A DNA stretch of 48,134 nt from a virus (lineage: Duplodnaviria > Heunggongvirae > Uroviricota > Caudoviricetes): IMG/VR virus record IMGVR_UViG_2651869782_000034, one strand, 5' to 3'. The notes below the pieces were generated by a model. That model was not told the origin of the DNA, ran no database searches, and was given only the letters and a program-made list of their open reading frames with translations. Position 1 is the first letter of the stretch, and the number at the start of each line of letters is the position of its first letter. Shown one piece after another: positions 4,717 through 42,165 of this stretch. Both the position numbers and the translations under genes were made by a program.

Positions 4717-5685
4717 TTAGTAGGTTATTTTTGTTGCGAATACTTCGCCTTTTACGATGGCTGTTATGATATTTTTAGCAACATCTTCTGATGCACCAAC
4801 CTTGATAAGGTCAGCAAGTATTTTGTTATTTACTTCTTTCCGGTGAGCTTTATCCTTTGCTCTACGCTCTTCTTCTTCCTTGATTCTTTTTTCTTCTGCT
4901 ATTCTGGCTTGCTCTTTTGCTTCAGCCTCGCGCCTGATTCGTTCAGCCTCCTCCTGTGCTTTTCGGCGTTCTGCTTCAATTGCCGCCTGCTTTTCTCTTT
5001 CAGCTCGTTCTGCTGCCTCTTTTGCTTCGCGCTGTGCTCGTTGCTCGGCTTCAATGCGTTCACGCTCTGCACGTTCCGCTGCGGCCTTAGCTTCTGCTTC
5101 TCGCCTTGCTGCTGCTTCAATTTCGGCTTTTGCCTTTGCTTCGGCTTCTGCTCTGGCTTTCTCTTCAGCTTCTCTTTTTAAGCGTTCTTCATGCTCTCGC
5201 TTTTCCTGCTCCGCTTTGAGTCTTGCCTCTTCTCTTTGGCGGTCAAATTCGCGATCCATCAAAATCGCTATTTCATGGTCAGACTCAATTTGCTTTGCGA
5301 GAGCTTCAGCTGCTGCCTTAGCTTCTTCTTCGGCTTTAATCCGCGCCTGTTCTTCCTCATAATCAGTAAGAGGCTGGCGCGCCTTGGCTTTCAGTTCATC
5401 AAGGCGATCACGCACTGTCTTGCGGTTAGCATCAATTAGCTTTGGAATTTCCTTCAGTTCAGCAACAAGGTCTTTGCCAAGACCATCGAGATATGTTTTC
5501 GTCTGCGCAACTTTATACGCCAGAGAAGCGATCTCCTTTCTGCCCTTTGCCGTTGTGATATCAGGCACAAAGGACATAACTTCACGTTCAACCTTTTGAA
5601 GGATTTCTTCAATCTGGTCGGCAGACTGAAATACAGTCATTGCATTTGCTTTTTCAATAACAACTAAATCTGTTACTTCACTCAT
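4717..5685 (-). CDS. Coiled-coil protein with long E/A/K/R low-complexity repeat region
   Basis: GGAGGA RBS 6 nt upstream of ATG 5685; about 150 aa of AEAKAKAE/REAEEK repeats. Confidence 0.6.
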   Translation of the reverse strand: MSEVTDLVVIEKANAMTVFQSADQIEEILQKVEREVMSFVPDITTAKGRKEIASLAYKVAQTKTYLDGLGKDLVAELKEIPKLIDANRKTVRDRLDELKAKARQPLTDYEEEQARIKAEEEAKAAAEALAKQIESDHEIAILMDREFDRQREEARLKAEQEKREHEERLKREAEEKARAEAEAKAKAEIEAAARREAEAKAAAERAERERIEAEQRAQREAKEAAERAEREKQAAIEAERRKAQEEAERIRREAEAKEQARIAEEKRIKEEEERRAKDKAHRKEVNNKILADLIKVGASEDVAKNIITAIVKGEVFATKITY

Positions 5686-5696
5686 ATATCCTCCAT

Positions 5697-5724
5697 CAAA
5701 AAAAATTGCCCTCACACTGGAGGG
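5697..5724 (-). terminator. Rho-independent terminator inside early-left operon
   Basis: Minus-strand hairpin GCCCTC-cagtgt-GAGGGC followed by AATTTTTTTT. Confidence 0.55.
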
Positions 5725-5820
5725 CAAAGAAGATTTCCAATAATCAGAACAAGTCGGCTCCTGTTTAGTTACGAGCGACATTGCTCCGTGTATTCACTCG
5801 TTGGAATGAATACACAGTGC

Positions 5821-6009
5821 TTATTCGTCATGCATTTCAGGTAATTCTTCGTATTCGACGCCCCATACGTTTTCACACCAACTAACTCGCTCATATCTTT
5901 TACAGAAATCAGACCACATAACTTGTGTTTCATCATGGTTTGTTATTATTTCTGTAATATCACCAACACTAACAAAACTGGTATTAGAAGCAGTTATTTT
6001 TACTTTCAT
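5821..6009 (-). CDS. Hypothetical protein
   Basis: 62-aa ORF, start overlaps stop of upstream gene. Confidence 0.4.
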   Translation of the reverse strand: MKVKITASNTSFVSVGDITEIITNHDETQVMWSDFCKRYERVSWCENVWGVEYEELPEMHDE

Positions 6010-6299
6010 TACTCATCTCCAAGAGCTTTGCTAATTGCTGACTGTGCTTTCGATACTTCATCAGGATAATGGTCATTCCAGTTTTGCTTGTATGCCTTGT
6101 TTAGCATCGCTTTCAGGGCATTTAAAAGGTCAGGTGCTGCCGCTATTAGATTGGCATCTTCAATACATTGAACTTCCTCACAGATTGCAATATACGAACG
6201 CCAGCCTGCGCCATTTTCAAGTGAGTCTGCCTGGATGATTTTAATCTCATCGCCATCCATCATTATTTCCCACTTACCTTCAGTACCTTTAAATTCCAT
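6009..6299 (-). CDS. Hypothetical protein
   Basis: ATG 6299 with AGAGG RBS; ORF track 6009..6323. Confidence 0.45.
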   Translation of the reverse strand: MEFKGTEGKWEIMMDGDEIKIIQADSLENGAGWRSYIAICEEVQCIEDANLIAAAPDLLNALKAMLNKAYKQNWNDHYPDEVSKAQSAISKALGDE

Positions 6300-6336
6300 G
6301 TTAGCCTCTGTTGTTAGTGCCAAAAATAAAGGCCGA

Positions 6337-6660
6337 CTATGCGGCCTTATCTACATTTCTGAACCAAACGCAGATCGGACCGTCTTCTGTATCGTGAATC
6401 GAACCGACAAACCATCCTTCTCCATCTGGCATGCTTGGCTCCCATCCACTGATGTTTGGATTCCCATCTTCAAAATACGCGTCAATTACCGTTTGATTGT
6501 TGTCGTTTTCCATTTCAACAATTGATGATTCAATGCCATGCTGCTTGCAGAAAGATCTGAACTCATCAACTGAAATTACCTCTCTATCCCCAAACAGGTT
6601 GGCGTATTCTGGGTGCGTCCAGTAGCCATCCTCGCTTCGCTCTACTACTAATGCTTCCAT
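6337..6660 (-). CDS. Hypothetical protein
   Basis: GAGGTG RBS directly upstream of ATG 6660. Confidence 0.5.
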   Translation of the reverse strand: MEALVVERSEDGYWTHPEYANLFGDREVISVDEFRSFCKQHGIESSIVEMENDNNQTVIDAYFEDGNPNISGWEPSMPDGEGWFVGSIHDTEDGPICVWFRNVDKAA

Positions 6661-6668
6661 ATCTCACC

Positions 6669-6995
6669 TCAAATAAGTGGTTTGCTGCCTAATTTCATTT
6701 TCTGGCGACCAACACAAGTCACACCCATTTCACTGCGTGGCTTGCTGTACCTTGTGCGCTGATTCTTGCGCTCAATACGTTGCAGGTTGCTTTCAATCTG
6801 TTCGTGGTATTCAGCCAGCACCGTAAGGTCTATCGGATTCAGTGCGCTTTCTACTCGTGATTTCGGTTTGCGATTCAGCGAGAGAATAGGGCGGTTAACT
6901 GGTTTAGCGCTTACCCCAACCAACAGGGGATTTGCTGCTTTCCATTGAGCCTGTTTCTCTGCGCGACGTTCGCGGCGGCGTGTTTGTGCATCCAT
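6669..6995 (-). CDS. N: Antitermination protein N (lambda-type)
   Basis: MDAQTRRRERRAEKQAQWKAANPLLVGVSAKPVNRPILSLNRKPKSRVESALNPIDLTVLAEYH matches lambda N including arginine-rich motif. Confidence 0.9.
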   Translation of the reverse strand: MDAQTRRRERRAEKQAQWKAANPLLVGVSAKPVNRPILSLNRKPKSRVESALNPIDLTVLAEYHEQIESNLQRIERKNQRTRYSKPRSEMGVTCVGRQKMKLGSKPLI

Positions 6996-7105
6996 CTGGA
7001 TTCTCCTGTCAGTTAGCTTTGAGTAACGCGCCGTGATGCTTATCTCCACGGTTGCTGTCTTGCAGCTGCATTTCGCGCTACTCAAAGCTTTCTGCTTTGA
7101 ATGCT

Positions 7106-15764: not shown

Positions 15765-15839
15765 GGGTCAGTCGTATAAAGGTCATTACGGAAGGCTGTT
15801 AACCTTCTTATCGTGGTTCGAGTCCACGCTGTCCCGCCA
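15765..15839 (+). tRNA. tRNA-Asn-like (anticodon GUU), slightly degenerate stems
   Basis: Anticodon arm GAAGG-CTGTTAA-CCTTC, T arm CGTGG-TTCGAGT-CCACG, 3' CCA; one mismatch each in acceptor and D stems. Confidence 0.5.
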
Positions 15840-15844
15840 AATAT

Positions 15845-15920
15845 GCTGGTTTAGCTCCAATGGTAGAGCAGTCGCCTTGTAAGCGAATGGGTAGCGGTTC
15901 AAGTCCGTTAACCAGCACCA
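15845..15920 (+). tRNA. tRNA-Thr (anticodon UGU)
   Basis: Perfect 7-bp acceptor stem GCTGGTT/AACCAGC, D arm GCTC..GAGC with GG, anticodon loop CTTGTAA, T loop TTCAAGT, discriminator A plus CCA. Confidence 0.75.
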
Positions 15921-32319: not shown

Positions 32320-32769
32320 CTATTTTTTAAGGTAATAATCATCAAAATCGCAAGAAGCGGATATCACAGAACTTGAATCCATAGAAAAAGACAGGGTTTC
32401 GCATGCCTTTCCGGCCTGATGATATGCATGGATATCACCGGATACATATCCTCCTGTAGAAAACAACGATTTTTCACCGTTTTTTTCTACAAGAATGTGC
32501 TTATCTGAATCATTAATAAACCAAATGGAAATAGAGTGACTTTCGCCAAGGTCTGTTCTATTGAACACCTTAGGTTGGGTACCCTTGACAGCATTTTCGG
32601 CTCGCATAATCAGTTCAGCGCTTTTTTTGCTATTTTTTTGTTCTGTATAGATTTTGTCTGCCACAAAATAAACAATGGCAATGGCTAACAAAGATAGGGA
32701 AATCAGCAATGCCTTTTTAATCAATTTTTTGGCATCCCTGTAAATCTCAACTGATAATTTTTCACTCAC
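32320..32769 (-). CDS. Single-pass membrane protein (moron; sieA-position superinfection-exclusion candidate)
   Basis: GTG start 5 nt after AAGGAGG; TM helix LLISLSLLAIAIVYFV then about 110-aa extracytoplasmic domain; opposite strand to late operon. Confidence 0.55.
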   Translation of the reverse strand: MSEKLSVEIYRDAKKLIKKALLISLSLLAIAIVYFVADKIYTEQKNSKKSAELIMRAENAVKGTQPKVFNRTDLGESHSISIWFINDSDKHILVEKNGEKSLFSTGGYVSGDIHAYHQAGKACETLSFSMDSSSVISASCDFDDYYLKK

Positions 32770-32832
32770 ACCAACCTCCTTAGTTTTGTGCAGGATACCA
32801 GATGATAATGTGTAGTTGGAGTAGCGCGGTTG

Positions 32833-32928
32833 TAATGCAAGCATTTTGTTTTGGTTTTATGCTTGCTTGTATGTGTGTACAGTGCATATAATGCAAGCAT
32901 ACATCACAATAAAGGTGCTTGCATTATG
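32833..32928. promoter_or_regulatory. Four copies of near-palindromic motif ATGCAAGCAT / ATGCTTGCAT in a divergent promoter region
   Basis: taATGCAAGCATt (32833-44), ATGCTTGC (32859-66), taATGCAAGCATa (32889-900), GCTTGCATta (32916-26) overlapping ATG 32926. Confidence 0.55.
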
Positions 32929-33918
32929 ACTGAAAAGAAAAGTGGCGAAGGGAAAGCTAAGGGCGGTATCGCTCGCGCAAAGTCGCTGACTAAAGAGCAG
33001 CGTTCTGAAATAGCAAAGAAAGCAGCGGCTGCAAGATGGAAGGATAAACCATTAATTGCTACGCATAAGGGATCGTTCCAGCATGAATTCGGGATTGATG
33101 TTGAGTGCTATGTGTTAAATGATGATAACAAAACTGCCGTTATTAGCCAGAGAGGCATGGGAGAAGCGATTGGTCTTGGCGAAGGTGGCAGCAGGTTGCC
33201 AAAGTTTATTCAGGGGAAAACTATTTCTCAGTATATCGGGCATGAATTAAGGGCAAAACTTGAAAATCCTCTTATTTTTCAATACAAACAGGCGGGCACG
33301 AACACTCCAGCTAATCCTGTAATACATGGCTACGATGTAACAATATTAATTGATTTATGTCGAGCAATCTCTAATGCTAAAGCTGAAGGTAAGTTGCTTT
33401 CCAGTCAGGAAGGGATTGCTAAGCAAGCCAGAATCATTATTGATGCATCAGCCAAGGCGGGCATTCAGGGGCTTGTTTATGCTTTGGCAGGGTATGACAG
33501 AACAAAAGAAGAGGTAATTCAAGCATATAAGCGATATGTTGCTGAAGAGGCTCGTGAGTATGAAAGAGAGTTCACCCCTGAACTTTATGAGCATTGGTAT
33601 CGTCTGTATGGTATAGACAAACCAGTTAGAGGGCGACCATGGGCGTTTAAATATCTTACGATAGATCACATTTATTACCCATTAGCCAGAAGTGAAGGAA
33701 AGGTATTTAATTTAGCAAAAACGTCAAAAGAAGAAAAAGGCAGCAAAAACGATAAAATACACCAGTTTTTATCAGAGGTTGGAGTTAAGGCTCTTAGAAC
33801 CCAAATAGGTAAGGTTACTGGTATTGCAATGGTTTCTGATACTCGAGAAGAGTATGAGAAATACATAGATGAAAAGGTTATTGGACAAAGAACCATAGAC
33901 TTAAAAGATAAAGAATAA
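32926..33918 (+). CDS. Hypothetical 330-aa protein with basic N-terminal segment (possible DNA-binding)
   Basis: MTEKKSGEGKAKGGIARAKSLTKEQRSEIAKKAAAARW; start codon lies inside an operator-like repeat. Confidence 0.55.
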   Translation: MTEKKSGEGKAKGGIARAKSLTKEQRSEIAKKAAAARWKDKPLIATHKGSFQHEFGIDVECYVLNDDNKTAVISQRGMGEAIGLGEGGSRLPKFIQGKTISQYIGHELRAKLENPLIFQYKQAGTNTPANPVIHGYDVTILIDLCRAISNAKAEGKLLSSQEGIAKQARIIIDASAKAGIQGLVYALAGYDRTKEEVIQAYKRYVAEEAREYEREFTPELYEHWYRLYGIDKPVRGRPWAFKYLTIDHIYYPLARSEGKVFNLAKTSKEEKGSKNDKIHQFLSEVGVKALRTQIGKVTGIAMVSDTREEYEKYIDEKVIGQRTIDLKDKE

Positions 33919-33924
33919 GAAAAT

Positions 33925-33946
33925 CCCACCGTCAGGTGGGTTTTTT
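33925..33946. terminator. Bidirectional rho-independent terminator
   Basis: CCCACC-gtca-GGTGGG followed by TTTTTT, preceded by AAAA on the other strand. Confidence 0.65.
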
Positions 33947-33971: not shown

Positions 33972-34508
33972 TCAAACAACCCACCAGTTTGCCTGATTGG
34001 ATGCCAGCCTTGCAGTTTTTATGGAATTAATTATGCCATGCTCAAGAGCCTTGTTAGCATCCAAAATGGTCGAGTCTGCTATCAGGGATGCCCACCTAAT
34101 ATGGGTTCCGATGTCGATATTGAACGTCTCAACGAAGCGATCAAGATCGTTATCGAGGCATTTCCCGTACTCTCTCAATCTGGCATGGTCGGCGGCTGGG
34201 GAGGCAAAGCACCATAATAGAGGATGTAACAGGAATCTTGATAATGGGTTTGCGAAACGTTCTGAGCCAGCCAGGAAAACGATATTAGCTATGGATTCAA
34301 CATTGCTTATGTTGTGAGTTCTAACGGTAACAGGGAGTGACTTAAGAAAGTTATACGCAGTAAAGCCAGCGGCAGTTTCCCCTCCCTGACTTGATATATG
34401 GATATTTAATTCAGTTGCGCCTTGAGATAATGCGGTGAGACAGTGGTTCTGAAGTTGCCCAACAGTGGCAGTGTTAACGGGGCATAAGAAATGAATTGTG
34501 TGCAGCAT
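33972..34508 (-). CDS. Clp-fold serine protease (ClpP-like, short form)
   Basis: HISSQGG vs ClpP INSPGG; ES-IANIVFLAG aligns to the ClpP active-site Ser; LLHPL aligns to MIHQP His; ATG overlaps mnt stop (TAATG). Confidence 0.7.
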   Translation of the reverse strand: MLHTIHFLCPVNTATVGQLQNHCLTALSQGATELNIHISSQGGETAAGFTAYNFLKSLPVTVRTHNISNVESIANIVFLAGSERFANPLSRFLLHPLLWCFASPAADHARLREYGKCLDNDLDRFVETFNIDIGTHIRWASLIADSTILDANKALEHGIINSIKTARLASNQANWWVV

Positions 34509-34756
34509 TATTTTTCATCCTTAGCATACATGGTCTTTAGCGTCTCAAGCAGCGCCTCTTTGAATTTGTCAGCTTCTTGCTGAGCAAATGACTCAACTGA
34601 CTTTGGCGACCTATCTTCATCAATCGCGGCTTGCAAAATCATGACGATCTCGGAGTTAACAGAGCGACCATTTTTTGATGCTCTGACAGCAAGAGCCTCG
34701 CGTAAAGATTCAGGGATTCTTACCGTAGTTGGAGAAATTGACACACCCTTTGCCAT
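34508..34756 (-). CDS. mnt: Mnt-like ribbon-helix-helix repressor
   Basis: RIPESLREALAVRASKNGRSVNSEIVMILQAAI and C-terminal coiled coil parallel P22 Mnt; divergent from arc. Confidence 0.8.
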   Translation of the reverse strand: MAKGVSISPTTVRIPESLREALAVRASKNGRSVNSEIVMILQAAIDEDRSPKSVESFAQQEADKFKEALLETLKTMYAKDEK

Positions 34757-34779
34757 ATCACACCTTTGGTATTCAATTT

Positions 34780-34834
34780 GATAGCAAAGTGTATGCAAAA
34801 AAATTTTGACTAGATATACTCACTTTGCTATCTT
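34780..34834. promoter_or_regulatory. immI control region: inverted 12-bp repeats GATAGCAAAGTG / CACTTTGCTATC flanking candidate Pant
   Basis: Repeats at 34780-34791 and 34821-34832; -35 TTGACT 34806-11 and -10 TATCTT 34829-34. Confidence 0.55.
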
Positions 34835-34870
34835 TTGTATTCGAAAAGAGTTGTTTGTGTGGAGGGTAAC

Positions 34871-35023
34871 ATGGAGAAAGAAATAAGTAAGATTTTGGTA
34901 AGGATGCCGCAGTCGTTAAAGGATGCTATAGGTAGCAGGGCAAAGGAAGAGTGCAGGTCGTTTAACTCAGAGGTTATCAAGCGCCTGATAGACAGCTTGA
35001 AGAGAGAGGGGGTAATGGTATGA
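34871..35023 (+). CDS. arc: Arc-like ribbon-helix-helix repressor
   Basis: MEKEISKILVRMPQSLKDAIGSRAKEECRSFNSEVIKRLIDSLKREG parallels P22 Arc. Confidence 0.75.
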   Translation: MEKEISKILVRMPQSLKDAIGSRAKEECRSFNSEVIKRLIDSLKREGVMV

Positions 35024-35223
35024 GTAAAGAATGTTGTTTCTGCGGCATTAGCGAATCAGACGCTGATCAAACATACATTTACTCTAAAGAAACAGGTCGG
35101 ATGCTGTGTAGTGACTGCGTGTTGGACATCATAAGATACAAGCATCTTGGATGTTCTGCCAGCATTAGCAATATAGGTGAAGTATATGAAGGGAAAGATA
35201 TAACTGATAGAGCAGAAAGTTGA
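35020..35223 (+). CDS. Small zinc-ribbon-like protein between arc and ant
   Basis: Two Cys pairs (CCFCG ... CSDC); ATG overlaps arc stop. Confidence 0.45.
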   Translation: MSKECCFCGISESDADQTYIYSKETGRMLCSDCVLDIIRYKHLGCSASISNIGEVYEGKDITDRAES

Positions 35224-35285: not shown

Positions 35286-36164
35286 ATGAAAAGTATAGCA
35301 AAGGCACAAAACGATTTCACCATCTTCAAATTCGGCGACAGTGAAATCCGCGTCATCAACAAGTGCGGTGAGCCGTGGTTTGTAGCTAAAGATGTTTGTG
35401 ATGCTTTAGCTTTGACTAACTCACGCAAGGCGCTTACTGCACTTGATGACGATGAAAAGGGAGTAACTTTAAGTTACACCCTTGGTGGTGAGCAGAATCT
35501 AAGCATTGTGAGCGAATCAGGTATGTATACATTGGTTCTGCGCTGCCGCGATGCAGTCAATAAAGGTTCAGTCCCGCACAAATTCCGCAAGTGGGTAACA
35601 GCAGAAGTTCTGCCTTCAATTCGCAAACATGGCGAGTATGTTAAAGGAAAGAAAACCACTGTTGAGGAAAGAACACCGCTACGCGATGCAGTAAACATGC
35701 TGGTAGGAAAGAAAGGACTTCGCTATGACGATGCATACAATATGGTTCATCAGCGTTTTGGTATTGACAGCATTGATGAACTTTCAATTGAACAAATCCC
35801 GCAAGCTGTAGAGTACATCCACAGGGTAGTGCTTGAAGGTGAGTTCATCGGCAAACAAGAGAAGAAAACCAACGAGCTTTCTGCAAAAGAAGCAAACAGC
35901 CTTGTATGGTTATGGGATTATGCCAACCGCTCACAGGCATTATTCCGCGAACTGTATCCGGCGCTAAAACAAATTCAATCGAACTATTCCGGCAGATGTC
36001 ATGACTGCGGTTATGAGTTCTCCCGTATTATCGATATGGCGAGAGATGTTTTAATCAACCATACACGAGATGTTGATATTAATGAGCCAGACGGACCAAC
36101 GAATCTTTCCGCATGGATGAGACTTAAGAATAAAGAATTACCTCCTTCAGTACATAACTACTGA
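35286..36164 (+). CDS. ant: Antirepressor Ant (Bro-N domain)
   Basis: Bro-N motif [30 protein letters not shown]; follows arc as in P22 immI. Confidence 0.85.
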
Positions 36165-36264: not shown

Positions 36265-38427
36265 ATGACAGACATTACAGCCAATGTTGTAGTGAGTATG
36301 CCTTCGCAACTCTTCACTATGGCGCGCTCTTTTAAAGCCGTAGCCAATGGCAAAATTTATATCGGAAAAATTGACACTGACCCGGTAAATCCAGAAAACC
36401 AGATCCAGGTTTATGTGGAGAACGAAGATGGCTCTCATGTTCCTGTTTCGCAACCAATCATCATTAACGCTGCTGGTTACCCGGTATATAACGGACAAAT
36501 TGCCAAATTCGTTACTGTACAGGGCCATTCTATGGCTGTTTATGATGCATACGGTGCGCAGCAGTTTTATTTCCCTAATGTGTTGAAGTATGAGCCGGAT
36601 CAATTAAGGTTGGAGCTTGAATCATCTGGTGGAGCAGGATTGATAGGTGGTGTTTCGAAGCCTATTACTTTTTTTGGTGCTATTGGTGATGGATTAACAA
36701 ACAATACGCAGGCATTTAACGATGCAGAGATATTAGAATTCAATGACATCTACATTCCTGATGGTGTTTATAATGTAAATAATATTAACTTAAATAAGAG
36801 ATATTGGGGGCCTGGCATAGTAGTGATTAATTACCAGACTGAATATTCTGGCTCTGGTGTTAACGACATGACCGTGTCAGGAATATACAATGGACAGCAA
36901 GATCTAAATGCAATTGTAAGAATAAAAGAAGCTTCAAATCCTGATAAGCTTGAATTCAGTACAGATAATGGAGTTACATGGCATGACACGATAGACGTGT
37001 ACAATCCAATCGATGACAGTGTATCTCCGCAACCAATCGTAATACTTGCAGGCGGGGTGGATTTTTTCGTGAGTGGATTGAAGATAAACTTTTCTTCAAC
37101 CACTGGACATACAGTAAATGACTCATGGTCATTTTTCATTCCTTCCAATCCATCAGTAATAAACACGGGAAGTGGCAGCATCGTTAAATCAGGAAGCGTT
37201 ATTTTTAATGTTAGCGGAAACAATGATACTAATACTTCCGCTGGAAAAGACTCATTAGGCGGTGGAAACGTAGGAGCTAACAATACCGCATATGGGTGGA
37301 AGAGTTTGCACTCAAACACTACAGGATACGCAAATACCGCGTCTGGGATTCAGTCTATGGAAAACAATAAGACTGGTAAAAACAATTGTGCATACGGTGC
37401 TGATTCTCTAAGAGCTAACGTATCTGGTTCTGATAACGTAGCGGTTGGGGTCTTTGCGTCCGGAGCAAACACAACCGGGTACGGTAACACTGGACTTGGT
37501 AACGATGCCAATAGGTACAATGAAACAGGATTCGGAAATACCGCAGCGGGTGTGCAGGCACTGTACCACAACAAGGCCGGTAATGAGAACACAGCTTTCG
37601 GTGAATACGCATTACGCGGAGGAAATTCCAGCCTACCTACGGGAACATCCATTCAGTATTCCGTCGCTGTAGGAGCTAAAGCCGGTTTCAACGCGTTAGG
37701 TAATAATAATACAGCTATAGGTTACGAGGCGCTATATTCTGCATCAGGATCTGATAATGTTGGTATTGGATTCGATGCAGGGTTTAAAGTAACGGCTGGT
37801 GCTTTCAATGTATTTTTAGGTTCTAATTCTGGTAACGGGTCAGAGCAGGCTACAGATGTGACAAACTGCGTCCTTATCGGAGATAATACAAAATCAACCG
37901 GAAGTAACGCAGTAGCTATCGGTAGTGGGGTAATTGCCGCTCAGAATACTGTAGCTATAGGTAATAGTGAGCATGAATTATTCTTGCATTATGGGAAATT
38001 TATACCACAAATTGATAATGCTTTTGATATTGGTGGGCCGGATGCGAGATATAAAACAATATATGCAACTACAGGAATGATAAATACATCAAATGAAATG
38101 TTGAAAACAAAACTAACAGACATTGATGTTGCTGAAAAAAAAGCTGCACTAGAAATAAAAGATAATATTAAAAAGTTTAAGATGCTGGATTCTGTTGAGG
38201 TAAAGGGATTTGATGGTGCTAGGTGGCATTTTGGTGTTGGAGCTCAAACTGTTGGTAATATAATGAGGAAGCACGGACTTGATCCTAGTAAGTATGGGTT
38301 TTGGTGTCACGATAAAACGCATCGCGAACACATGACTGGAAATATAGATATCTTTTGTGAAAGTTATGGTATAAGATATGACGAACTTGCAATGTTTATA
38401 TTGGCATCAATATCTTTATGTGAATAA
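36265..38427 (+). CDS. Tailspike: P22-type head-binding N-domain, repeat-rich beta-helix, C-terminal S74-like chaperone domain
   Basis: [11 protein letters not shown]...[19 protein letters not shown]...VTVQGHSMA matches P22 gp9 N-domain; NTAxGxxAL repeats; SNEMLKTK near C-terminus. Confidence 0.9.
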
Positions 38428-38519: not shown

Positions 38520-39150
38520 CATCAATCCAGTCCGCCCACCACTGCATCATTTCTCTGCGCTTAACGTAGCGGATGCCTCACTATCACACGGTGATAGTCC
38601 ATTGCTGCTTTGAAGAATGGATAGAGAACTGAGGATAAAAAGATATCCCAAAACCCAAAATCTCATCTTTAGGATTTGCAGAAAGGTAGGCGTGAACAAA
38701 TACCTGCGCATGAAAACGGAACTAGTCCAGATGTGATGTTTGTGGTGATCACATACATCATTAACGATGCTCGTTATGGTGAGTTTGATGACTACCCGCT
38801 GAAGTGAAAATTGTGTTGTGTACCAAATTGCGTACCAAACTAAAATCACAAATCATGAAACCCTTGTTCATGGCGGTTCTTAGGGGTGTTGCGCGTAATC
38901 GTGAAACAAAAAGGTAGATTGTTGCTTACCGTCATTCATCATTAGGTTAAATCCGTTATTTCTGCTGTCTGCCAGAGTATCAAATATCACCGTGCTAATC
39001 AGCTTTAGCGCGACAATTTGGCAGCGAGTGGCAACAGATCATGTCAGATAAAAATGAGGTAGTAGTCACATTTTCTTGCACTTTATTCCAGCCAGTTCAT
39101 AAGTATTTCCGTAAAAAGAACAGCTATTTGAAACACCTGAGGGTTTGCTG

Positions 39151-40317
39151 TTGAAACGCCGTCTTATTATTGCTGCTTCTTTGTTCGTTTTTAATTTATC
39201 GTCTGGTTTTGCGGCGGAAAACATTCCTTTTTCACCTCAGCCTCCAGAGATTCATGCCGGGTCCTGGGTATTGATGGATTACACCACCGGTCAGATTCTC
39301 ACCGCGGGTAATGAGCATCAACAGCGCAATCCCGCCAGCCTGACAAAGCTGATGACGGGCTATGTCGTGGATCGTGCTATCGATAGTCATCGCATTACGC
39401 CAGACGATATTGTCACCGTGGGGCGCGATGCGTGGGCGAAAGATAATCCGGTGTTTGTCGGTTCTTCACTGATGTTTCTGAAAGAGGGCGATCGCGTATC
39501 GGTACGTGATTTAAGCCGTGGTTTAATTGTGGATTCCGGAAATGACGCTTGTGTTGCTCTGGCTGACTATATTGCCGGTGGGCAACGGCAGTTTGTTGAA
39601 ATGATGAACAACTATGCCGAGAAGCTGCATCTCAAGGATACGCATTTTGAAACAGTGCATGGTCTGGATGCACCTGGCCAGCATAGCTCGGCTTATGATT
39701 TAGCTGTGCTTTCTCGCGCTATCATCCACGGCGAGCCCGAGTTTTATCATATGTACAGTGAGAAAAGCCTCACCTGGAACGGTATCACTCAGCAAAACCG
39801 TAACGGGTTATTGTGGGATAAAACCATGAATGTTGACGGCCTGAAAACGGGTCATACTTCTGGTGCCGGGTTTAATCTCATTGCTTCGGCTGTGGATGGG
39901 CAGCGTCGTCTCATTGCAGTGGTAATGGGGGCTGACAGTGCAAAAGGTCGTGAGGAAGAGGCAAGAAAATTACTGCGTTGGGGGCAACAAAACTTTACTA
40001 CGGTGCAAATTTTGCACCGTGGGAAAAAGGTCGGAACGGAACGCATCTGGTATGGCGATAAAGAAAATATCGCCCTGGGAACGGAACAAGAGTTCTGGAT
40101 GGTGCTACCGAAAGCCGAAATTCCACATATCAAAGCCAAATATACCCTTGATGGTAAAGAACTCACCGCGCCAATTAGCGCCCATCAGCGGGTAGGGGAA
40201 ATTGAACTTTATGACCGTGATAAACAGGTGGCGCACTGGCCGCTGGTTACCCTGGAATCTGTCGGGGAAGGCAGCATGTTTTCCCGGCTGAGTGATTATT
40301 TCCACCATAAGGCCTGA
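39151..40317 (+). CDS. dacD: D-alanyl-D-alanine carboxypeptidase DacD (PBP6b)
   Basis: Signal peptide and SxxK, SGN, KTG penicillin-binding motifs; sequence recognised as E. coli DacD; TTG start. Confidence 0.9.
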   Translation: MKRRLIIAASLFVFNLSSGFAAENIPFSPQPPEIHAGSWVLMDYTTGQILTAGNEHQQRNPASLTKLMTGYVVDRAIDSHRITPDDIVTVGRDAWAKDNPVFVGSSLMFLKEGDRVSVRDLSRGLIVDSGNDACVALADYIAGGQRQFVEMMNNYAEKLHLKDTHFETVHGLDAPGQHSSAYDLAVLSRAIIHGEPEFYHMYSEKSLTWNGITQQNRNGLLWDKTMNVDGLKTGHTSGAGFNLIASAVDGQRRLIAVVMGADSAKGREEEARKLLRWGQQNFTTVQILHRGKKVGTERIWYGDKENIALGTEQEFWMVLPKAEIPHIKAKYTLDGKELTAPISAHQRVGEIELYDRDKQVAHWPLVTLESVGEGSMFSRLSDYFHHKA

Positions 40318-40435
40318 CCTTTCTTTTGCAGCAGACTGGCAGGAGTGCGAGTCTGCTCGCATAATCAACACTCATTCCTTGTGGTTTTAATATTGCAACT
40401 ATACTGTATATAAAAACAGTGTTAGTGGAGGCGTT

Positions 40436-40909
40436 ATGAACTACGAGATTAAGCAGGAAGATAAACGTACCGTTGCAGGTTTCCATCTTGTTGGCCCGTG
40501 GGAGCAGACGGTAAAGAAAGGTTTTGAGCAGTTGATGATGTGGATAGATAGCAAAAATATTGTGCCGAAGGAGTGGGTTGCTGTCTATTACGACAATCCG
40601 GATGAAACACCCGCCGAAAAATTACGCTGCGACACCGTCGTGACGGTACCGAATAACTTTACGCTCCCCGAAAACAGTGAGGGCGTCATTCTGACAGAAA
40701 TTTCAGGTGGTCAGTATGCGGTGGCGGTGGCTCGTGTAGTCGGTGATGATTTTGCTAAACCCTGGTATCAGTTCTTTAATAGCCTCTTGCAGGACAGTGC
40801 CTATGAAATGTTACCAAAGCCCTGCTTCGAGGTTTACTTGAACAATGGCGCGGAAGATGGGTACTGGGATATCGAAATGTATGTTGCGGTGCAGCCAAAA
40901 CATCACTAA
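40436..40909 (+). CDS. sbmC: DNA gyrase inhibitor SbmC (GyrI)
   Basis: [39 protein letters not shown] recognised as SbmC. Confidence 0.9.
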
Positions 40910-41106
40910 TTCATCTCAGGGCGGTGTGTTGACGCGAAGACCACTCTTTTTTTGAAAGTGAAAAGAGTAAGATGCGCCTTTCAATTTTTTCGCTCCTGCC
41001 GGGAAATTACACTGTTCCCGGTTTGTCCGTCGGATAATTCAGAGGCGCGCCTTCTGGCCGACAGATGAGTTATGAGCGCTTTTAATCTTCATTACGGAGT
41101 TTCTGT

Positions 41107-42165
41107 GTGCGTGCCGATAAGTCATTAAGCCCGTTTGAAATCTGGGTATACCGCCATTACCGCATTGTGCATGGTACTCGGGTCGCGCTGGCATTCCTGC
41201 TCACTTTTCTCATTATCCGCCTGTTTACTATCCCGGAAAGCACCTGGCCGCTGGTCACCATGGTGGTGATTATGGGGCCAATCTCGTTCTGGGGGAACGT
41301 TGTCCCTCGTGCCTTCGAACGTATTGGCGGTACGGTGTTGGGTTCGATTTTAGGTCTTATCGCTCTGCAACTGGAGTTAATTTCGTTACCGCTGATGTTA
41401 GTCTGGTGCGCGGCGGCGATGTTTCTTTGCGGTTGGCTGGCGCTGGGCAAGAAACCGTATCAAGGATTATTGATTGGGGTGACGCTGGCAATTGTTGTGG
41501 GTTCCCCGACAGGTGAAATTGATACGGCGTTATGGCGAAGCGGCGATGTGATCCTCGGCTCTTTACTGGCAATGTTGTTTACCGGTATCTGGCCACAACG
41601 CGCGTTCATCCACTGGCGCATTCAACTGGCGAAAAGTCTGACCGAGTATAATCGGGTCTATCAATCGGCATTCTCACCGAACTTACTCGAACGCCCACGT
41701 CTGGAAAGCCATCTACAAAAACTGCTGACCGATGCCGTGAAAATGCGTGGGCTGATTGCGCCCGCCAGCAAAGAAACCCGTATTCCAAAATCGATATATG
41801 AAGGTATCCAGACCATTAATCGCAATCTGGTTTGTATGCTGGAGTTGCAAATCAATGCATACTGGGCCACGCGCCCCAGCCATTTCGTGTTATTGAACGC
41901 GCAAAAACTTCGTGATACCCAGCACATGATGCAGCAAATACTGCTGAGCCTTGTTCATGCGCTGTACGAAGGTAATCCGCAGCCGGTTTTTGCCAATACG
42001 GAAAAATTGAACGATGCTGTGGAAGAGCTGCGTCAGTTGCTGAATAACCACCATGACCTGAAGGTTGTGGAAACACCAATCTATGGTTATGTGTGGCTGA
42101 ACATGGAAACGGCACATCAGCTTGAGTTGCTATCGAGTCTGATTTGCCGGGCCTTGCGCAAATAA
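41107..42165 (+). CDS. yeeA: Inner membrane protein YeeA
   Basis: GTG start; multi-TM N-terminus; recognised as E. coli YeeA. Confidence 0.85.
   Translation: MRADKSLSPFEIWVYRHYRIVHGTRVALAFLLTFLIIRLFTIPESTWPLVTMVVIMGPISFWGNVVPRAFERIGGTVLGSILGLIALQLELISLPLMLVWCAAAMFLCGWLALGKKPYQGLLIGVTLAIVVGSPTGEIDTALWRSGDVILGSLLAMLFTGIWPQRAFIHWRIQLAKSLTEYNRVYQSAFSPNLLERPRLESHLQKLLTDAVKMRGLIAPASKETRIPKSIYEGIQTINRNLVCMLELQINAYWATRPSHFVLLNAQKLRDTQHMMQQILLSLVHALYEGNPQPVFANTEKLNDAVEELRQLLNNHHDLKVVETPIYGYVWLNMETAHQLELLSSLICRALRK

Follow-up and report, generated by a model that had tools for sequence, protein, structure and literature searches.

The DNA analysed here, referred to as the window, is a 48,134-nt stretch from the IMG/VR virus record IMGVR_UViG_2651869782_000034. 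It carries a P22-like Escherichia coli prophage, recognisable by its S24/HTH (helix-turn-helix) repressor, DnaB-type helicase, P22 portal, P22 coat and injection proteins. In the immI region of this prophage, a short operon joins mnt to a downstream gene, here called clpP-t, whose predicted product is an N-terminally truncated paralogue of ClpP (Table 1). The mnt TAA stop occupies bases 34510-34508 and the clpP-t ATG begins on base 34508, and this 1-nt overlap is identical in every mnt-linked copy analysed. A hairpin at 33925-33940 separates the operon from a convergent P63C gene and terminates both.

The product of the first gene contains the motif NGRSVNSEIV and matches Pfam Arc (E 9.5e-11) and FitA-like_RHH (E 2.1e-8). 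Over residues 11-79 it aligns with P22 Mnt at 36% identity (E 7e-14). The aligned stretch takes in the C-terminal part, which in P22 Mnt is the tetramerisation domain, and the Pectobacterium counterpart is listed with Pfam Repressor_Mnt. Gene order and orientation match those of P22 immI, with arc, a small open reading frame (ORF) and ant on the opposite strand. The alignment thus identifies the 82-aa gene as a Mnt homologue in a P22-type immI layout. An earlier note on this DNA, made by eye, had described a ribbon-helix-helix (RHH) ORF with a GRSVNSEI motif, divergent from arc-ant, a TAATG junction and a bidirectional terminator, and all of these features were recovered. The window nevertheless differs from P22, in which the slot held here by clpP-t contains the 59-codon orf59a, placed after mnt with a 100-nt gap and before the mnt terminator. 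A zinc-ribbon ORF between arc and ant is a further addition in the window.

Relation of clpP-t to cellular ClpP proteins

Profile, structural and evolutionary evidence agree on the nature of the second gene. The Pfam CLP_protease profile recognises its product from profile position 37 onwards, with 44.4 bits (cut-off 20.2) and E 2.2e-11. An AlphaFold2 (AF2) model built with 31 homologues as input reached a predicted local distance difference test (pLDDT) score of 91.9, and Foldseek aligned it to the ClpP proteins of E. coli, S. aureus and T. thermophilus with template modelling (TM) scores of 0.83-0.85, that for E. coli being 0.83. Comparison with an 80%-identical Pectobacterium orthologue gave a ratio of nonsynonymous to synonymous substitution rates (dN/dS) of 0.08 with synonymous sites near saturation, and the gene is under strong purifying selection; its GC content carries no foreign signature. 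Together, these results show that clpP-t encodes a genuine ClpP-fold protein. All NCBIfam ClpP and head-maturation models scored the product far under their cut-offs, and the NCBIfam scan returned only such sub-threshold matches, with neither SDH-family nor SppA among them. The earlier note had proposed both CLP_protease and SDH-family models for a profile search, and the former was borne out whereas the latter was not.

Conservation was counted in a clpP-t family alignment of 31 sequences, to which E. coli K-12 ClpP was aligned. ISSQGG, Ser72 and LLH95PL of the clpP-t product align with INSPGG, Ser97 and His122 of ClpP, which agrees with the alignment proposed in the earlier note, and both Ser72 and His95 are kept in 31/31 members. 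The same note had placed a conserved Asp near EHGIINSI, and this did not hold. In the ClpP Asp171 column, the window protein has Ser146 and the family has Ala (16 sequences), Ser (11), Thr (2) or Gly (2), with Asp in 0/31; the neighbouring D145 occurs in 2/31 sequences, and D150 varies. As judged from the alignment, the catalytic Ser-His pair is conserved and no Ser-His-Asp triad is intact in the family. The description of a Clp-fold serine protease is therefore upheld for the fold and withdrawn for the triad.

Relative to mature E. coli ClpP, the product starts near residue 27; roughly the first 26 residues have no counterpart, so that the axial loops and the first helix are absent. In ClpP, the N-terminal axial loops gate the pore and contact the ATPase. 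We also compared the E. coli ClpP residues of the pocket that receives the IGF/IGL loops of ClpX and ClpA. From E. coli ClpP to the clpP-t product, these positions change as Y60 to N35, Y62 to H37, F82 to S57, I90 to H65, L114 to N87 and L189 to K164, with L48T and F49A in addition, and only M92I and F112F are kept. The positions of the unfoldase-docking pocket thus carry mostly polar or small residues, and the product lacks the elements required for ATPase docking. Set against canonical E. coli ClpP (peptidase family S14), it retains the fold, the Ser97 and His122 equivalents and the handle region, whereas identity is only about 20%, Asp171 is replaced by Ser, the N-terminal region is absent and the pocket is altered.

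The closest known relative is not a canonical ClpP. When the family profile was searched against the PDB, 9UXT chain A was matched at E 1e-50, as against about 1e-11 to 1e-13 for canonical ClpPs. The clpP-t product is 40% identical to 9UXT across its full length (E 3e-45), and Foldseek superposed the two with a TM score of 0.93 and a root-mean-square deviation of 1.6 Å. This structure is the ClpP1 of Pseudomonas plecoglossicida (PpClpP1; PLoS Pathog 2026, PMC12900304). PpClpP1 is N-terminally truncated and forms a homotetradecamer with a 42.7 Å axial pore, and its active site, Ser73-His96-Pro, requires Ser and His but not the third residue (PMC12900304). Its peptidase activity, described as latent, is 13-fold under that of the canonical paralogue, and it does not bind ClpX; together with canonical ClpP, it assembles into a stable heterotetradecamer with raised peptidase and ClpX-dependent activity (PMC12900304). 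The clpP-t product shares with PpClpP1 a length of about 180 aa, the absence of the N-terminal axial region, the Ser and His residues and a non-Asp third residue, which is Ser in the former and Pro in the latter. Tetradecamer formation, pairing with canonical ClpP and activity have been shown for PpClpP1, whereas the clpP-t product is known from its sequence and predicted structure.

The two proteins also differ in genomic setting. The genes of PpClpP1 and its Pseudomonas and Azotobacter relatives stand alone on the chromosome, surrounded by ordinary cell genes, whereas clpP-t is carried as cargo by a phage and coupled to the gene of a repressor; a prophage origin of PpClpP1 was considered and rejected on account of these ordinary chromosomal contexts. 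In concept, clpP-t recalls the two-paralogue ClpP1P2 systems, namely ClpP1/ClpP2 of P. aeruginosa, ClpP1/2 of Listeria and ClpP1P2 of mycobacteria, in which a second paralogue of ClpP has an unusual active site or does not dock an ATPase and works within mixed tetradecamers (PMC12900304 and general background). Those systems consist of core cellular genes, whereas here the second paralogue would come from a prophage in a host that has a single clpP. By these comparisons, the clpP-t product is a new phage-borne branch of the just-described kind of truncated ClpP paralogue. Literature searches on ClpP-like prophage genes and on immI with Clp brought up no account of the phage gene. The relevant items were limited to a review of the prophage phiv205-1 and the PpClpP1 paper, in which phages are unmentioned (PMC12900304). 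No description of the coupling to mnt, or of the spread of clpP-t as prophage cargo, was found in the literature searched. The earlier view that no function had been described is accurate for the phage arrangement, but not for the protein family, of which PpClpP1 has been characterised (PMC12900304; 9UXT).

Table 1. Coordinates of the mnt-clpP-t operon, the rest of immI and other features (window positions unless another record is named)
Feature	Position	Strand	Basis or remark
clpP-t, N-terminally truncated ClpP paralogue, 178 aa (Ser72, His95; Ser146 at the Asp position)	33972..34508	-	Pfam, AF2, Foldseek, alignment
mnt, ribbon-helix-helix Mnt homologue, 82 aa, first gene of the operon	34508..34756	-	Pfam Arc, P22 Mnt alignment
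TAATG stop/start overlap of mnt and clpP-t, base 34508 common to both	34506..34510	-	sequence
AAGGA, Shine-Dalgarno-like, 9 nt upstream of the clpP-t ATG, within the mnt 3' end	34518..34522	-	sequence
Two-way terminator, GC-rich hairpin with T-runs on both strands	33925..33940	.	terminator scan
Perfect 12-bp inverted repeat GATAGCAAAGTG / CACTTTGCTATC, mnt/arc intergenic, candidate operators	34780..34832	.	repeat search
Pant-like sigma-70 promoter (TTGACT-17-TATCTT) into arc	34806..34834	+	consensus match only
arc, 50 aa	34871..35023	+	Pfam Arc 4.4e-12
CxxC...CxxC mini-protein, 67 aa, between arc and ant	35020..35223	+	PHROG_7150, narrow distribution
ant antirepressor, Bro-N + P22_AR_C	35286..36164	+	domain scan
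Tailspike; prophage end and host genes	36265-38427; 39145-42165	+ (first interval)	
tRNA-Asn(GTT) and tRNA-Thr(TGT), upstream of the lysis/late region	15765-15920	+	
immI-like module (mnt, clpP-t, arc, antirepressor) in Escherichia phage PhiR12_1 (L002, PV340549)	5048-7060		

Distribution of clpP-t among prophages

The locus comparison covered 80 IMG/VR loci together with genome loci. Homologues of 50-80% identity are present across Enterobacterales, and their surroundings depend on how closely they are related to the window copy. Intact copies of at least 80% identity, from E. coli and Pectobacterium, all lie directly after mnt with the 1-nt overlap, the exceptions being phage E212, which has an mnt remnant, and some copies damaged by insertion sequences (IS) or frameshifts. 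In E212 (L003, 5066-5602), clpP-t is intact, only the final mnt codons are left and arc is absent. In E. coli NCTC11151 (L018, 3501-5598), an IS3 element lies between mnt and a 5'-truncated clpP-t. The Mnt proteins encoded upstream of clpP-t fall into at least six N-terminal (DNA-binding strand) types, the P22 type included, and have in common only the C-terminal tail. In E. coli genomes, the DNA match to the window ends at several differing points inside mnt, and the same mnt is also found without clpP-t.

Copies of 50-75% identity have no upstream RHH gene and stand alone, antisense to their neighbours. The commonest site lies between Rz/Rz1 and the terminase region; others adjoin the N antiterminator gene, lie between the tape-measure and baseplate-hub genes of myovirus-type prophages, or separate a DNA invertase gene from a tail-fibre assembly gene. 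An AAA+ unfoldase or other constant partner gene was looked for beside these stand-alone copies, and none was found. In one E. coli prophage group (L016:2219-2767; L079-L086), a 182-aa ORF always precedes the stand-alone clpP-t on the same strand with a 78-nt gap; it belongs to PHROG_5483, has no Pfam match and is a possible partner gene.

The module can also travel whole. In the PhiR12 lambda-like siphophages, the complete mnt-clpP-t/arc/ant module sits between tail genes L and K, and this insertion in PhiR12_1 indicates that it moves as a unit between phage morphotypes. Among 5,426 complete E. coli genomes, 146 match the mnt-protease segment, all on the chromosome, and 78 of these cover at least 80% of it; the module is thus present in approximately 2-3% of complete genomes. 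Hence, clpP-t is mobile accessory prophage cargo that occupies several prophage positions and has no conserved partner gene. Many prophages nearly identical to that of the window occur in K1 and avian pathogenic E. coli (APEC) strains. One prophage with the module at 98.5% identity is phiv205-1. In comparisons of the whole prophage with its deletion, it makes its APEC host more virulent and a stronger biofilm former, an effect not attributed to clpP-t (PMC10052878).

Possible roles of the clpP-t product

On balance, we lean modestly towards the view that the clpP-t product is an accessory barrel of the PpClpP1 type, co-expressed in lysogens, which acts through mixed tetradecamers with host ClpP and thereby alters Clp-dependent proteolysis. 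In P22, mnt encodes the maintenance repressor, which represses Pant and is expressed in lysogens, and because its homologue here overlaps clpP-t, the latter would be made together with Mnt in the lysogen. The product would form a wide-pored, weakly active tetradecamer that is itself unable to recruit ClpX or ClpA. Since it presumably cannot recruit these unfoldases and brings no partner of its own, it would have to act through host ClpP, pairing with it in a mixed core with a single ClpX-competent face on the host-ClpP side. Such a core would shift what the ClpXP and ClpAP of the lysogen degrade, or how fast. Candidate substrates include leaky Ant or Arc, incoming-phage proteins and host regulators. 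The earlier note had suggested superinfection exclusion, abortive infection or proteolysis of Ant as possible roles. Control of Ant cannot be what the family does in general, since many of its members stand alone, with no mnt, arc or ant within the 5-12 kb considered around each. The product might act as an enhancer, as PpClpP1 does, or alternatively as a damper.

Several points weigh against this proposal. A simple promoter scan of the window called no Pmnt, and expression of clpP-t from that promoter is proposed from knowledge of P22 and from the gene overlap. The idea of co-assembly with E. coli ClpP extrapolates from PpClpP1, which is 40% identical and pairs with its own partner in Pseudomonas. 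Because the Pseudomonas relatives are borne by the chromosome and not by phages, they may have another role. Finally, neither experimental nor transcript data were found for the clpP-t protein.

The main rival is that the product works autonomously, as a gate-less peptidase whose open-pore homotetradecamer degrades unfolded or unstructured polypeptides without an ATPase. Its targets could be ejection or early proteins of superinfecting phages, which would result in superinfection exclusion or defence. The wide pore and measurable peptidase activity of the PpClpP1 homotetradecamer alone are consistent with this idea, as are the classical prophage cargo and defence sites at which clpP-t is found antisense to late genes. 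The same region is occupied by sieA in P22, and YafO-toxin and Panacea-domain genes adjoin the clpP-t module in sister prophages. However, PpClpP1 by itself is latent and far weaker than canonical ClpP, and a PADLOC-DB 2.0 scan of the clpP-t product, Mnt and neighbouring proteins matched no defence family at E up to 1. We consider autonomous activity rather unlikely.

A poison subunit appears less likely still. Here, docking-incompetent subunits would enter host ClpP complexes and lower ClpXP and ClpAP activity, so that Clp substrates such as antitoxins or phage regulators would be stabilised. Lambda RexB has been reported to act analogously. The low activity of PpClpP1, its failure to bind ClpX and its mixing with canonical ClpP would all suit a damper, as would the mostly polar or small residues at the docking-pocket positions of the phage family. 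A sister prophage whose immI encodes a stand-alone ClpX zinc-finger domain, expected to compete with substrate or adaptor binding by ClpX, points in the same direction. Nevertheless, the sole experimental data, those on PpClpP1P2, show that peptidase activity and ClpX-dependent degradation are enhanced, not reduced.

A type II toxin-antitoxin or abortive-infection pair, in which the clpP-t product would be the toxin and the RHH protein its antitoxin, is very improbable. The layout, in which an RHH gene comes first and the second gene overlaps it, and the FitA-like_RHH match of the first product recall such pairs. However, the RHH protein is a full-length Mnt homologue within a complete mnt/arc/ant layout, and PpClpP1 could be overexpressed in, and purified from, E. 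coli (PMC12900304). More than 40 clpP-t relatives stand alone with no RHH gene upstream, and the toxin-antitoxin explanation was rejected because such copies without an antitoxin-like gene exist.

We give practically no credence to a ClpP-type prohead (head maturation) protease, although PHROG_94 'head maturation protease' matches the product at 7e-21 and GenBank MN340231 (phiv205-1) labels a homologue accordingly, a label transferred from a Streptococcus phage. ClpP-related head maturation proteases (NF045542; PHROG_94) have the Pfam CLP_protease domain and phage encoding in common with clpP-t, but the product reaches only 49.3 bits against the cut-off of 120 of NCBIfam Clp_rel_HeadMat (NF045542), and its nearest relative is a cellular ClpP paralogue from non-phage Pseudomonas loci. 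Moreover, the gene is not part of the head module: it is encoded on the opposite strand, in immI, where it shares the mnt operon and terminator. The window phage also has P22_CoatProtein, P22_portal and a separate scaffold gene, and P22 capsids mature without a protease. As far as sequence goes, the sub-threshold Clp_rel_HeadMat score, the P22 coat and portal and the position outside the head module led us to reject this explanation, in line with the earlier note's expectation that the protein has no morphogenetic role.

The arc/ant side of immI and neighbouring cargo

A second Clp-related gene was found on the other side of immI, in a sister prophage. The gene in the slot between arc and ant of E. 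coli 14EC017 (L017:3992-4174) codes for a ClpX zinc-finger domain on its own. Its product passes the cut-off of Pfam zf-C4_ClpX (7.6e-11) and also matches PDB 1OVX, the N-domain of E. coli ClpX (1.7e-7). This domain may be a phage decoy for substrate or adaptor recognition by ClpX. The 67-aa ORF in the same slot of the window has a similar CxxC...CxxC layout, but BLASTP related the two only at E 0.024. No Pfam match was obtained for the window ORF, and its PDB matches were weak RING fingers. A homologue search returned near-identical proteins only, and matches among 1.8 billion proteins were mostly long, multi-stretch and spurious-looking.

That immI regions contain two distinct components of the ClpXP machine suggests that Clp proteolysis is of importance to the immI switch, although clpP-t and the ClpX zinc finger do not always occur together. 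An extension of this idea, which we regard as speculative and on the whole unlikely, is that immI is a two-sided device controlling host ClpXP. On the lysogen side, the extra ClpP ring from the Mnt operon would re-tune host Clp proteolysis so as to erase leaky Ant or Arc or destroy proteins of superinfecting phages. Sister prophages would, upon infection or when derepressed, supply from their Pant operon a free ClpX zinc finger that blocks substrate or adaptor recognition by ClpX. A host with a single ClpP would thereby be turned into a ClpP1P2-type host by its prophage.

The control region between mnt and arc differs in spacing from that of P22. The arms of the inverted repeat lie at 34780-34791 and 34821-34832, 29 bp apart, and the right arm overlaps the -10 element of the Pant-like promoter. 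This arrangement is unlike that of P22, in which the O-arc and O-mnt operators are annotated as adjacent.

Beyond immI, the tailspike has the P22 head-binding domain, C-terminal domains of the endosialidase type and an S74 chaperone domain. The prophage is followed by host genes for an S11 D-Ala-D-Ala carboxypeptidase, a FUSC-family protein and a GyrI-like protein. The interval from the gene-16 homologue to the mnt operon is a variable cargo site, which in the window holds the gene for the P63C-domain protein (32926-33918, +). Among other loci (L018, L019, L103), it contains a YafO-family toxin gene in NCTC11151 and genes for a Panacea-domain protein and a hypothetical protein in another strain, and in AR_0017 and CE10 it contains three small hypothetical genes. 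Adjoining the gene-16 homologue, a 174-aa ORF with one predicted hydrophobic segment (32320-32844, -) has the position and orientation of P22 sieA. Its product showed no similarity to P22 SieA (E 6.6) and matched no Pfam, PHROG or PADLOC family.

In phage annotation, a ClpP domain is routinely taken as the mark of a head maturation protease. The clpP-t family shows that some of these genes are accessory prophage cargo instead, with a second ClpP of the cell as their relative. If the clpP-t product pairs with host ClpP as its relative does in Pseudomonas, temperate phages would reprogram a central host protease from within. This may affect the stability of lysogeny, ClpXP-dependent toxin-antitoxin and defence systems, superinfection and host fitness, and clpP-t is carried by prophages of clinical E. 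coli lineages.

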